Source: Aquabacterium sp. A7-Y
Lineage (GTDB): Bacteria > Pseudomonadota > Gammaproteobacteria > Burkholderiales > Burkholderiaceae_C
Reading direction: 5' to 3'
Assembly: GCF_026153205.1 (NCBI RefSeq)
Contig: NZ_JAPFBW010000026.1
Span: 32,315 to 96,314, forward strand
DNA: 64,000 nucleotides
Position 1 is the stretch's first letter; the number at the start of each line of letters is the position of its first letter. Under the pieces are notes generated by a model. The model did not search any database and was not told where the DNA came from. It saw nothing but the letters and a program-made list of their open reading frames with translations. Position numbers and translations under genes: made by a program. Positions 46,536 to 53,710 of the stretch are shown in pieces.

Positions 46536-47024
46536 CTGGAGCGACTACAGGAAAGCCAAGGCCATCCGGTTTTGGCAGTTGGCATGAAACGGTTGCTCTA
46601 CACCGTCGCTGGCGGTGCCCTGTTTGCGGTGTTGTCCTACTTCCTGGTCGAGCTGTTCGCCCAGTGGTACGGCCCGAGGTACATCAAGTCGGACTCGGAC
46701 ATCGGCGACATCTACATGATCTCGCTCGGGTTCATGCTGGTGTGCCTGATCATCGGCGCGGTCTTTGGCTTCAAACTGGCGGGAAAGCGACCGAGCACCA
46801 CGAACAGCTAAGGACGCGCTGAACAACGGGCCCCTTGCCCCGAGCTGAGTCGAGCGAGCGTCACGGCAACGGAGCAAACGCCTTTGTCGGCGGCGCAAGA
46901 GGCCCCCTCGAACGCGGTCTGAGGCCTCGTTCGAGGCCTGCGTACCACTGCGGCAGACAGTACGTGCGCAGCATCTTGGGCACACCGATCCGTTGCCGGC
47001 CCACGCGACCACTCTTCGTATACA
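46536..47024. repeat. 489-bp direct repeat, copy A (about 99% identical to 53140-53628)
   Basis: Aligned by eye. The single amino-acid difference in the embedded ORF is D/N. Confidence 0.85.
46572..46811 (+). CDS. 79-aa two-TM membrane protein (copy A)
   Basis: Duplicate of the 53166-53405 ORF. Confidence 0.5.
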   Translation: MAVGMKRLLYTVAGGALFAVLSYFLVELFAQWYGPRYIKSDSDIGDIYMISLGFMLVCLIIGAVFGFKLAGKRPSTTNS

Positions 47025-47640
47025 TGTCAACGTCGGTTTAAAACTGACCCACTTTCCGGCGATCGCGTCGGAGTAAATCTGACCCACCCGGGGTCTCATT
47101 GCTTCAATTCTTCGGCTTGACCTGTCCGGCCTTGCGCTTGTCCTTCAGGCGGTAGCTCTCGCCGGCGATCTGCACGATGTGGGCGTGGTGCAGCAGTCGG
47201 TCGAGCAGCGCAGCCGTGAGGGTCTGGTCGTCGGCGAAGCCGCTGGACCACTGGCTGAACGGCAAGTTGCTGGTGAGCACGATGCTGCCGCGCTCATACC
47301 GCTTGGCCACGACGTTGAAGAACAGCGTCGCCTCCTCGGGCCCACCACCGCCCGGTTGAAGTACTCCTTGAGGCGGTCTTGCTTGTGGGCCGTGGCCAGT
47401 TGCAGCATCAGGTCGGCCGCCGTGATGAAGCGCGTCTTGATGCCCGCCATCACCGCCCGGTACGCCAGGGCTTGCGCCAGATGGCTCTTGCCAACGCCAC
47501 TGGGTCCGAGGAAGACGACGTTCTCGGCGCGCTCGACGAAGCTCAGGGCAGCCAGTTCCTGGATCTGGCTGCGCGGCGCACCGCTGGCGAAGCCGAAGTC
47601 GCAGTAGAGACGGGGGCCTGACCCCGATGCTCCCACCCGG
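47025..47640 (-). mobile_element. IS21-family remnant (right terminal repeat region plus truncated istB)
   Basis: TGTCAACG... terminus with repeated CTGACCC motifs. IstB Walker [14 protein letters not shown]. Confidence 0.55.
47104..47640 (-). pseudogene. istB: istB (IS21 helper ATPase) fragment with an internal deletion/frameshift, N-terminally truncated
   Basis: Two overlapping ORFs in different frames carry consecutive IstB segments. istA is absent. Confidence 0.6.
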
Positions 47641-48271
47641 CCATGTGCGGCTGGTCGCGAGCGACTCGGCCATTGCCGAGTCGCTGCTCGACGACCTGGC
47701 GGCCTTCATGCGCGAGCCGAGCAACGCCGGCATCCAGGTCGACATCGAGGAGCGCATCTCCAGCGAGCTGGTGCGCGCGGTGCGTGAAGGCAGCGCCTCA
47801 CTGGGCGTCTGCTGGGACAGCATCGCCTTCGACGGCCTGGAGCACCGCCCCTACCGGGAGGACGAGCTGGCGCTCGCGGTGCCGGCCGGCCACCCGCTGG
47901 CCGGCCGGCCTTCGCTGCGCTTCGAGCAGAGCCTGAGCCATGAGCACGTCGGGCTGCCGCCCAGCACCGCGGTGCACCGCATGCTTCAGCGTGCCGCGGC
48001 GGAGTGTGGCAAGGCCATCGTGTACCGGGTGGTGGTGTCCAACTTTGACGTGGCTTTCCGGGTCGTCGCGGCCGGGCTGGGCATCAGCGTGGTACCGCTG
48101 CAGGTCGGGACCGCGTATGCGCGCCTCCTGAACGTGCGGTTGGTGCCGCTCAGCGACGCCTGGGCACGGCGCCGCTTCGCGGTCTGCTACCGCAGCCAAC
48201 CGGCGTTGCCGCCGGCCGCGCAGCGGATGCTCGACTATTTGGCCGGCAAGGCGGTGGCGGCAGACGCTTGA
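47627..48271 (+). pseudogene. LysR-family regulator, substrate-binding domain only (HTH domain lost at the IS21 junction)
   Basis: LysR substrate-binding-domain-like sequence with no N-terminal HTH. Confidence 0.5.
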
Positions 48272-48677
48272 GGCCGCGTCCACCGCCGGCCCATTAGAGG
48301 CAGGCCGAGGAGGAGGAGGAGCAGGACGGAAGCGGGTTCCAGAACGACCCGAGCGCTCCCCGTCACATAAAGCTCGTTCAACTCCGGCTGAATCCACGCC
48401 TGTTGAGCGTCGAGAAATGGCAGGGTCCCGAGGTTTTCAATGACCTGCGGGACAAGGGGCTTGAAGTAAGCCGTCACGGTGAAACTCGTGGCAGCCCCGA
48501 CCTGCTGCGCCGGGACCACCGTCGTGAAATTCATGGAGCAATGGCCGAGGAGAAAAGATCCGCGCAAAGGACTCAGCAACCGTGCGAGAAGCCCTGGGGA
48601 TCTGCCTGGCGGAACCAGGTGCGAAGGCGTGCAAACCCGGTCTCAAGTTGGCGTGCCAGCGGCCGTAAATAACGCTG

Positions 48678-51845: not shown

Positions 51846-53100
51846 CGTATCTTGACCAAGCCGACCCGGAATGCATCGATGGCAAGATGGAGTCGGCCGG
51901 CCAGGGTGATGCCGATTAGGCTTTGGGCCATGAGTTGAACAACTCGGGAGCCCGTGGGTCAGATAGGACAGCCTTGGCCGTTCTTCGTTCACGAGACCGA
52001 ACGGTAACTTGAGCCGGCGTCGACGGCAGTGCGACCAGAGCTCGCATACGAGGATGGTCGGCAATGGAGAACTCGATTCAGTTCTGGCTGGGCATCGACG
52101 TGTCCAAGCGCAAGTTGGATGTAGCGCTGCTGGATGCGCGCGGCAAGTTCAGGTCGCGCAGCGTTCCAAACGACGCCAGTGGCTTTGCTCAATTGATGAA
52201 GTGGCTGCAAGAACGGGCGGCGACGCCTGGCACGTGTCATGTCTGCATGGAGGCCACCGGCCCCTATAGCGAAGCCTGTGCCACGTCGCTGAGCGATGCA
52301 GGCTGGCTCGTCAGTGTCGTCAATCCACTGCGCGTCAAAGGCTTCGCGCAAAGTGAGCTCCTGCGCAACAAGAACGACCGCGCGGACGCGCAGTTGCTCG
52401 CGCGCTTCTGCTCCAAGCATGCGCCTGAGCGCTGGGTCGCGGCGCCTGCACACGTGCGTCATTTGCGGGCCCTGGTTGATCGCCTGCAAGTCCTCAAAGA
52501 CATGGTGCAGCAGGAATCGAATCGACTCGAGGCACTCGATAACGATGCCATGTTGCGACAGTCGATCGGCGAGCACATTCAGTGGCTCAAGCGCTGCATG
52601 GCCGATCTGCAGCGGCAGATCGACGATCACATCGATGGGAATCCCGATCTGCGCGAGGACGCGGCGCTGATGCAAAGCATCCCGGGATTGGGACCTGTGA
52701 CGGCTGCCAAGGTCCTCGCCTACCTCGGCGATGTGCGCCGCTTCGGCAATGCCAAAGCGCTGGCCGCGTTCCTGGGGGTGACACCAAGGCAGCGGCAGTC
52801 GGGCACATCGATCAACGGGCGAACGATGCTGAGTCGCAGCGGTCATGCGGCGATGCGCACCGCGCTGTACATGCCGGCAGTCGTCGCGATGCAGCACAAC
52901 CGGGCGGTCAAGGCTTTCGGCGACCGTCTGCGTTCTCAGGGGATGGCACCTAAAGCCGTCATCGGCGCTTGTATGCACAAGCTCGCGCTGCTGATCTTCG
53001 GTGTCGTTCGCTCGGGCAAGGCTTTCGATGTCAGTTTGGCAATGCCCAAGCTTGACTTTCAAGACGGTATCTGACCCCGATGCCCGCCGATGCCCGATGC
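51846..53100 (+). mobile_element. IS110-family insertion sequence (ends approximate)
   Basis: Intact IS110-type transposase gene with a roughly 200-bp 5' leader. Confidence 0.5.
52064..53074 (+). CDS. IS110-family transposase
   Basis: N-terminal DEDD-type domain (WLGIDVSKRKLDVAL) and C-terminal IS110 domain. 336 aa. Confidence 0.85.
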   Translation: MENSIQFWLGIDVSKRKLDVALLDARGKFRSRSVPNDASGFAQLMKWLQERAATPGTCHVCMEATGPYSEACATSLSDAGWLVSVVNPLRVKGFAQSELLRNKNDRADAQLLARFCSKHAPERWVAAPAHVRHLRALVDRLQVLKDMVQQESNRLEALDNDAMLRQSIGEHIQWLKRCMADLQRQIDDHIDGNPDLREDAALMQSIPGLGPVTAAKVLAYLGDVRRFGNAKALAAFLGVTPRQRQSGTSINGRTMLSRSGHAAMRTALYMPAVVAMQHNRAVKAFGDRLRSQGMAPKAVIGACMHKLALLIFGVVRSGKAFDVSLAMPKLDFQDGI

Positions 53101-53139
53101 CGATGCTGACCTGACCCCGATGCTGACCCCTGGAGCGAC

Positions 53140-53628
53140 TACAGGAAAGCCAAGGCCATCCGGTTTTGGCAGTTGGCATGAAACGGTTGCTCTACACCGT
53201 CGCTGGCGGTGCCCTGTTTGCGGTGTTGTCCTACTTCCTGGTCGAGCTGTTCGCCCAGTGGTACGGCCCGAGGTACATCAAGTCGGACTCGGACATCGGC
53301 AACATCTACATGATCTCGCTCGGGTTCATGCTGGTGTGCCTGATCATCGGCGCGGTCTTTGGCTTCAAACTGGCGGGAAAGCGACCGAGCACCACGAACA
53401 GCTAAGGACGCGCTGAACAACGGGCCCCTTGCCCCGAGCTGAGTCGAGCGAGCGTCACGGCAACGGAGCAAACGCCTTTGTCGGCGGCGCAAGAGGCCCC
53501 CTCGAACGCGGTCTGAGGCCTCGTTCGAGGCCTGCGTACCACTGCGGCAGACAGTACGTGCGCAGCATCTTGGGCACACCGATCCGTTGCCGGCCCACAC
53601 GACCACTCTTCGTATACAGCGGCTCGAT
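53140..53628. repeat. 489-bp direct repeat, copy B
   Basis: See copy A. Confidence 0.85.
53166..53405 (+). CDS. 79-aa two-TM membrane protein (copy B)
   Basis: Differs from copy A by one residue. Confidence 0.5.
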   Translation: MAVGMKRLLYTVAGGALFAVLSYFLVELFAQWYGPRYIKSDSDIGNIYMISLGFMLVCLIIGAVFGFKLAGKRPSTTNS

Positions 53629-53710
53629 CCCCGCCATCAGCCGCGCCCCATGGCACGATGCGCTCCATCTCGGCGAGAAACTTCTCGCACCGCGTGCGCT
53701 TTTTCTTCAT
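53629..53710 (-). pseudogene. IS5/IS1182-family transposase, first ~27 codons only (truncated at the repeat B boundary)
   Basis: MKKKRTRCEKFLAEMERIVPW matches the characteristic IS5-family N-terminus (R.RFL.EME..VPW). Confidence 0.45.

Follow-up and report, generated by a model that had tools for sequence, protein, structure and literature searches.

How did two nearly identical segments of 489 bp come to lie in the same orientation on either side of 6.1 kb of regulatory genes and insertion sequence (IS) remnants? This question is raised by a locus of Aquabacterium sp. A7-Y, which was analysed within a window of 64,000 nucleotides (RefSeq assembly GCF_026153205.1, contig NZ_JAPFBW010000026.1, forward-strand positions 32,315 to 96,314; all coordinates below are counted from the first letter of this window). 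Each segment carries a gene for a small membrane protein that, in related bacteria, is often found directly behind a gene for a Tae4-like amidase toxin. A sequence-only reading, made before any database search, had seen in the arrangement repeated IS-mediated rearrangement, with the 489 bp as a recombination substrate and possibly a mobilisable micro-module in its own right. The locus proved to be a recombination scar of an ordinary kind, a further case of known processes rather than a new mobile element. Its best explanation, which on balance seems somewhat probable, is that a decayed toxin cassette was joined by a circle carrying a second copy of the same cassette, which would have integrated by a single crossover.

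Two copies and their edges

Pairwise local alignment places copy A of the repeat at 46536–47024 and copy B at 53130–53618 (first placed at 53140–53628). The copies align without gaps and agree at 487 of 489 positions, in line with the identity of about 99% that had been read from the letters. They are spaced 6594 bp apart and enclose 6.1 kb of DNA. A 60-nt probe from the repeat hit exactly two sites in the 64-kb window, where none is expected by chance, and a repeat search over the whole window did not find a third copy. One of the two single-nucleotide polymorphisms (SNPs) between the copies (46707 G, 53301 A) exchanges residue D42 of the small protein for N, and the other (47005 G, 53599 A) is non-coding; they sit 298 bp apart. 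The single D/N change had thus been recognised, while the length of 79 aa given to the protein is more likely 75 aa. The identity of 99.6% in direct orientation makes it plausible that the repeat could serve as a recombination substrate.

Neither end of the repeat coincides with the end of a gene or element. Its left boundary lies inside a Tae4-type pseudogene, 52 nt before the end of that pseudogene, and its right 84 bp (53535–53618, equal to 46941–47024 on the minus strand in copy A) are part of an IS5-family element of which the 5' stump is left. Copy A has an ancestral left edge, as residues 119–162 of an intact Tae4 homologue align continuously through position 46536. Its right edge is derived: the IS5 stump gives way at 47025, directly after the copy, to an exact IS21 terminus (TGTCAACG). 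In copy B the situation is reversed. On its left only the last 52 nt of the Tae4 remnant are present, and this edge is an illegitimate joint, which follows a stutter of 52–54 nt located 3' of an intact IS110 element. On its right the IS5 stump continues uninterrupted, and the DNA aligns with an intact IS5 element across this edge without a gap. Both copies are therefore native on one side and derived on the other, and the two derived edges point inward. Since they do so, the arrangement fits the prediction of a single crossover.

The IS5-family stump (53535–53826, minus strand) consists of the left inverted repeat (at about 53826), the start region and codons 1–59 with one frameshift. Its codons share 80% protein identity with the IS5 transposase of Variovorax sp. 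WDL1, and the DNA can be aligned with the intact element of that strain over 293 columns (77%), left terminus included. A full DDE transposase between inverted repeats, as expected of the IS5 family, is not present here; what is left is the left terminus with the frameshifted codons 1–59. The fragment had been recognised as IS5-like and described as 5'-truncated, but on its own minus strand it is 3'-truncated, at about 53535. An IS5 element from Eleftheria was considered as a relative of the stump and rejected as unrelated.

The IS21-family piece (47025–47601, minus strand, 577 bp) comprises the right end and the 3' part of istB, of which Pfam IstB_IS21 recognises the C-terminal part only. The istB remnant has a 46-bp internal deletion after 47338 and is cut at 47601. 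An IS21 element would hold istA and istB between TGT...ACA termini, whereas the right terminus and a truncated istB are all that is found at this site; the earlier description of a terminus followed by a truncated, internally deleted istB with no istA was accurate throughout. Over aligned bases, the piece shares about 96% identity with an intact IS21 of the Eleftheria terrae plasmid NZ_CP106953. This IS21 was the sole match in a scan of a plasmid collection, which returned no useful relative of the IS110 element. In E. terrae (411609–413741), the intact IS21 also adjoins a gene annotated as a LysR substrate-binding domain only. That both this element and the piece in the window have a LysR-like neighbour is probably a coincidence. 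In the window, the neighbouring lysR gene does lack its helix-turn-helix (HTH) domain, as had been reported; it is not directly abutted by the istB fragment, however, since a 39-nt filler (47602–47640) lies between the two remnants.

The IS110-family element (51843–53077, plus strand, about 1.23 kb) is the only intact one of the three. It has a non-coding left end of 220 nt and a transposase of 336 aa (52064–53074), which is the length of most relatives. The transposase matches Pfam DEDD_Tnp_IS110 and Transposase_20, and scores 239.8 bits against the NCBIfam model 'IS110 family RNA-guided transposase' (cut-off 140). The ends of the element were set against those of three related elements (L013, L014 and L017), which put the right end at about 53075–53077. 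Both ends are conserved in all three, terminal inverted repeats are absent, and the element is a member of its family. Although it does precede copy B intact, as the sequence-only reading stated, it is a mere neighbour and not the edge of the repeat: a degenerate GATGCC/CTGACCCCGATGC (CTGAC) stutter of 52–54 nt (53078–53129) separates them, and it is the end of this stutter that forms the joint with copy B.

Three IS families are thus present at the breakpoints, and the IS21 element, the lysR gene and the IS5 element are all truncated, which bears out the earlier view of repeated IS-mediated rearrangement. The locus is not a composite transposon, as no two functional IS copies flank a cargo. 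The repeats contain just 84 bp of the IS5 stump and no transposase, the IS21 is a 577-bp remnant and the IS110 is present in a single copy.

A small membrane protein behind Tae4-like genes

The pseudogene that reaches into copy A (46316–46587, plus strand) has a frameshift at 46453 and lacks about 70 N-terminal codons, which include the catalytic Cys region. Using tblastn with an intact homologue of 162 aa from Roseateles sp. YR242 (L007), residues 72–118 (45%) and 119–162 (77%) were recovered in two frames. The remnant scores 24.9 bits against Pfam Tae4 (PF14113), which is under the cut-off of 27, and it cannot count as a Tae4 protein itself: residues 1 to about 71, including the NQCAI segment, are gone and the rest is frameshifted. 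Judged by its alignment, it represents a decayed gene of the Tae4 family, and intact relatives of that gene do exceed the Pfam cut-off; full-length Tae4-like partners elsewhere reach 79.5 and 68.6 bits.

The gene that follows is present in both copies. Allele D42 (OOT46_21810, 46584–46811, plus strand) matches MCW7540466.1 exactly and allele N42 (OOT46_21845, 53178–53405, plus strand) matches MCW7540471.1, each recorded on one contig only. The ATG at 46584 is the more likely start, giving 75 aa in agreement with the NCBI annotation, and it overlaps the stop codon of the upstream Tae4 remnant (ATGA). The family alignment and hydropathy profile show two hydrophobic segments that flank an invariant loop (WYGPRYIKSDSDIG, 15 conserved residues). 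The family is small. Only 19 relatives were found in a collection of 5.8 billion proteins (Roseateles, Mitsuaria and Aquabacterium), genomes of Ideonella and Paracidovorax contain additional homologous loci, and a scan of representative genomes gave relatives of 51–68% identity only. Members are 70–79 aa long. Pfam returned nothing but a sub-threshold match of the 75-aa protein to DUF6580 (20.3 bits, cut-off 27).

Among 18 loci outside the window, drawn from genomes and metagenomes, an intact Tae4-like gene ends at or adjoins the start codon of the 75-aa gene in 11; a 3' remnant of Tae4 alone is present in two and Tae4 is absent from five. In Roseateles chitinivorans, the homologue lies directly 3' of a Pfam Tae4 gene with a 4-nt overlap, and the ATGA overlap of toxin and partner is seen in locus L001 as well as in the window. 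The pairs are found in unrelated contexts: next to ffh/ftsY, an RND pump, urease genes, a TonB receptor, or beside an IS3 transposase. The partner thus stands directly downstream of the toxin gene and co-occurs with it conservedly, as in toxin-immunity pairs. Because of this conserved gene order, the 75-aa gene is most likely a putative orphan immunity gene against Tae4-type peptidoglycan amidases. The sequence-only reading, of which the anatomy was largely right, had missed this identity of the small gene. The two-helix proteins may represent a new kind of membrane-embedded immunity protein against such amidases, a proposal for and against which the chances appear even. It is likelier, and also less striking, than the idea of IS110 cargo discussed below. 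No solved structure of the Tae4-like partner proteins was found by sequence.

In Roseateles sp. YR242, an additional fragment of the 75-aa gene (11357–11428 of L007; residues 45–68, 67% identity) was observed 1.3 kb downstream of the intact Tae4/partner pair. Partial duplication of this gene therefore also occurs elsewhere.

Immediately to the left of the Tae4 remnant, a second decayed toxin-immunity pair occupies 45598–46337. Its toxin part (45598–46093, plus strand) is a Tlde1/YkuD-like pseudogene with a frameshift and an in-frame stop; the stitched translation scores 30.6 bits against Pfam Tlde1_dom (cut-off 30.1) and also matches YkuD, and the HGG..SAGCI motif of this L,D-transpeptidase-type sequence is still visible. 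An intact membrane ORF of 83 aa (OOT46_21800, 46086–46337, plus strand) overlaps the end of this pseudogene by 8 nt. It has a GC content at third codon positions (GC3) of 0.82, its exact protein is annotated in Aquabacterium sp. A7-Y, and it matches no Pfam or NCBIfam family. Its position alone makes it a possible partner immunity gene of the Tlde1-like toxin.

Tae4-Tai4 pairs of amidase effector and immunity protein have been described in Salmonella, Enterobacter and Agrobacterium (PMC3695027, PMC3759425, PMC6277958). The family resembles them in that the gene upstream, in relatives, encodes a member of Pfam Tae4 and the downstream gene is small and translationally coupled. The 75-aa protein itself is outside the described Tai4 families and the solved Tai4 structures. 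As in decayed effector-immunity cassettes of type VI or contact-dependent systems, a gene of (putative) immunity type has been kept after truncation of the toxin, with the 3' toxin remnant directly upstream and the Tlde1-like pair as a second decayed pair nearby. Orphan immunity genes are also known from the immunity arrays of Vibrio cholerae, which are shaped by homologous recombination (PMC5361080). The locus shares with these arrays the retention of more than one immunity allele and homologous recombination as the proposed driver. Unlike them, it belongs to a family that lies outside type VI secretion clusters in every locus seen, it holds near-identical copies of one gene and not different immunity types, and its copies are parted by unrelated regulatory genes and IS remnants.

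A proposed integration by a single crossover and its rivals

The proposed origin can be set out as follows. The 489 bp would be what two copies of a longer segment (at least about 0.9 kb) still have in common; this segment would have consisted of the Tae4-like pseudogene, the 75-aa gene and a spacer of about 130 bp, fused to the IS5 5' stump. The resident copy (U-X-V) would have been located in a low-GC accessory stretch beside the decayed pair of the Tlde1-like gene and the 83-aa ORF. A second copy, on another molecule or at another locus, would have lost its right side to the IS21 insertion, and its left side would have been joined illegitimately to DNA adjoining an IS110. A circle carrying this copy together with the truncated lysR, the GGDEF gene, rskA and the IS110 would then have undergone one homologous crossover with the resident cassette to give U-X-Y-X-V. 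The fusion of the istB and lysR remnants would have come about by a deletion either later or earlier than the crossover. The base composition speaks for it as well, with 0.67–0.70 GC in the inner DNA (47–52 kb), which is core-genome-like, versus 0.59–0.63 in the cassette and the DNA to its right. In such an arrangement, the direct copies could presumably loop the 6.1 kb out again via RecA.

These features are those of a Campbell-type integration of a plasmid or translocatable unit: the insert comes to be flanked by direct copies of the shared segment, whose outer edges stem from the resident DNA and whose inner edges come from the circle, and loop-out would reverse the event. Known cases differ in that the insert here has no replication or integrase gene and the circle is hypothetical. 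In contrast to IS26-type units, the shared segment is not an IS copy.

Several observations weigh against this reading of the cassette and its integration. No relative close enough to represent an empty or donor locus was found, and the reconstruction of such a locus failed. The origin of the 6.6-kb circle is undefined. A 15-nt direct repeat that brackets the inner 5.5 kb is left unexplained by the crossover. As to the cassette itself, Tai4 immunity proteins are soluble and periplasmic (PMC3695027, PMC6277958), while the partner here has 75 aa with two hydrophobic helices and a conserved loop of 15 residues. This protein matches no NCBIfam model, and a PDB profile search gave nothing below E = 0.3. 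Type VI secretion genes were absent beside every Tae4-like pair examined, and gene order is the one argument from which the putative immunity role is drawn.

Four other explanations were weighed against a crossover with a circle. Two old copies of the cassette may already have been split by the lysR-GGDEF-rskA DNA, possibly after a large tandem duplication and subsequent deletions, and may then have been eroded separately by the IS21 and by the joint on the IS110 side, without any circle. Direct repeats commonly arise by tandem duplication with later deletion, and the fusion of istB and lysR demonstrates that at least one large deletion has occurred here. Both copies also share the internal deletion joint between cassette and IS5 stump, and the duplication is therefore later than this joint. 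However, the eroded sides would face each other by chance in one arrangement out of four, the identity of 99.6% speaks for a recent event or gene conversion, and a tandem duplication predicts a second lysR-GGDEF-rskA-IS110 set downstream; none is present in the window, and the exact proteins are each recorded on one contig. Such a history is unlikely, yet it has to be reckoned with. It is less likely again that the assembly has misled us, the true state being a U-X-V chromosome plus a separate X-Y circle of 6,594 bp (or another locus) that was threaded into it by way of the 489 bp they have in common. The sequence comes from a draft assembly, on a contig of 103,429 bp; either state would yield an identical assembly graph, since the repeat can be entered by two paths and left by two, and the phasing of the copies depends on only two SNPs, the 298 bp between them included. 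Nevertheless, the copies differ consistently at both SNPs, the flanks of each are unique, an X-Y circle would be without a replication gene, and no signal of a misjoin was seen in the sequence itself.

The enzymes of the insertion sequences offer another route, in which the inner DNA was moved as cargo either by the IS110 recombinase acting at CTGACCCCGATGC sites or by the IS21 transposase using its real right end together with a cryptic end at 53118–53129. What speaks for it is the short repeat mentioned above: CCTGACCCCGATGCT occurs identically at 47617–47631, within the 39-nt filler, and at 53110–53124, with a score of 30 against a background maximum of 25, and so brackets an inner 5,493 bp with the truncated lysR, the GGDEF gene, rskA and the IS110. 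A 13-mer of it recurs at the right-end junction of the IS110 at 53071 (CTGAC + CCCGATGC), and of the 12 nt that immediately precede copy B, 9 agree with the inverted IS21 terminus. Neither route explains the duplication of 489 bp, though. The terminal TG/CA is missing from the cryptic IS21 end, and the GATGC stutter at this place makes its match look better than it is; a single pair of 15-mers in 12 kb is improbable to a moderate degree only (about 0.1 expected by chance). The remaining similarities of the filler, to the 18-bp tandem described below and to the terminal repeats of IS21, proved to be within background, with the 15-mer alone standing out. Movement of the inner DNA by an IS enzyme is accordingly regarded as improbable, and its more specific form, in which the IS110 recombinase moved or excised its neighbours from lysR onwards through look-alike CCTGACCCCGATGCT sites, as slightly more improbable still. 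The notion of the 489-bp segment as a small mobile element of its own, the micro-module of the sequence-only reading, is scarcely tenable. It could appeal to two near-identical copies that each adjoin IS sequence, but the segment ends within a toxin pseudogene on one side and within a transposase stump on the other. Terminal inverted repeats are lacking (the left 20 nt, CTGGAGCGACTACAGGAAAG, are unrelated to TGTATACGAAGAGTGGTCGC, the reverse complement of the right 20 nt), as are target-site duplications at either copy (flanks GGGATA and TGTCAA for A, TGACCC and GCGGCT for B). There are two copies only in 64 kb, each allele is known from one contig, and the joint of cassette and IS5 internal to the repeat had no match in a metagenome collection.

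A reading of the 15-nt motif as a REP-like element was also considered and rejected, as the motif is confined to these sites in the 64 kb.

Inner genes, surroundings and meaning

The genes enclosed by the repeats are regulatory. The lysR gene without its HTH domain (47627–48271, plus strand) is covered by Pfam LysR_substrate over residues 3–206, and NCBIfam LysR models align to it only from about position 90 onwards. It is followed by an intact 7TMR-DISM sensor diguanylate cyclase gene (48678–50657, plus strand; Pfam 7TMR-DISMED2, 7TMR-DISM_7TM and GGDEF), whose product matches a protein of strain A7-Y at 100%; its closest relative otherwise shows 57% identity and no synteny. An RskA-type anti-sigma factor is encoded at 50994–51686 (plus strand; Pfam RskA_C, NCBIfam antisigma 113.5 bits). 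No sigma gene adjoins it and no sigma remnant was found in 50658–50993. Pfam and NCBIfam thereby confirmed the GGDEF gene and the orphan RskA-like factor that had been recognised from the letters. A promoter scan gave no sites. Just left of the IS110, 51705–51844 contain a terminator hairpin, an 18-bp tandem (CTCAGAGAGACGGGGTCA twice, 51726–51761) and an AT-rich element of about 80 nt with inverted ends (GGCCTTAAATT/AAATTTAAGGCC).

The IS110 itself is similar to RNA-guided (bridge RNA) elements of its family in having DEDD and Transposase_20 domains, a long non-coding left end and no terminal inverted repeats, as well as a left-end segment complementary to the right-end junction. The non-coding left end holds GGGTCAGAT (51956–51964), the reverse complement of the right end plus flank, ATCTGACCC (53068–53077). 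The equivalents in L014 are GTGTCAGAT and ATCTGACGC, where pairing is maintained via a G-U pair. This complementarity may reflect a bridge-RNA guide for the donor end, and the CC common to both junctions may be the core. With Rfam, neither gathering nor relaxed thresholds gave a family in the locus, and the left end folds only marginally better than shuffled sequences (z = -1.9). In L017, whose IS110 is 70% identical, a stutter of the right-end junction motif also follows the element (3160–3240), and its left flank contains a tandem duplication of about 70 nt (1790–1935).

To the right of the cassette lie an excisionase-type HTH gene, a PIN gene, Xre-type regulators, hsdM and a Schlafen-like ATPase gene. 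The first two (54087–55189), directly right of the IS5 stump, are an excisionase-family HTH gene (TIGR01764) translationally coupled to a PIN gene of the RSP_2648 family, and may form a toxin-antitoxin-like pair. Between the PIN gene and the hsdM of a type I restriction-modification system (57596–60118), a 94-nt direct repeat (55247–55340 and 57148–57241, 90% identical) and a 231-nt repeat (55447–55677 and 56215–56445, 71% identical) represent duplicated Xre-type HTH modules. The Schlafen/AlbA_2 ATPase gene is at 61406–63061, and the stretch from the PIN gene up to it looks like a small defence or accessory island. Further away, tRNA-Gly(GCC) (30475–30550) and tRNA-Arg(CCT) (31118–31190) have neither an integrase nor an island boundary next to them; a genomic island anchored at the tRNA-Arg (31118) was considered and is unsupported, as no integrase is nearby. 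Four tandem copies of a 63-bp unit, three of them 93–97% identical, occupy 7864–8142, upstream of a 708-aa ORF (8115–10241) whose start they overlap.

Taken as a scar of recombination, the locus suggests that a decayed toxin-immunity cassette can act as a patch of homology that traps unrelated regulatory genes and IS remnants in a chromosome, and it keeps two alleles (D42 and N42) of a putative orphan gene of immunity type. Its significance beyond annotation is small. Of more use is the testable assignment that it yields for a small uncharacterised family of proteins of 70–79 aa in Roseateles, Mitsuaria, Aquabacterium, Ideonella and Paracidovorax. The members of this family are candidate membrane-embedded partners of divergent Tae4-like amidases, in a two-gene cassette that appears to travel outside type VI clusters.

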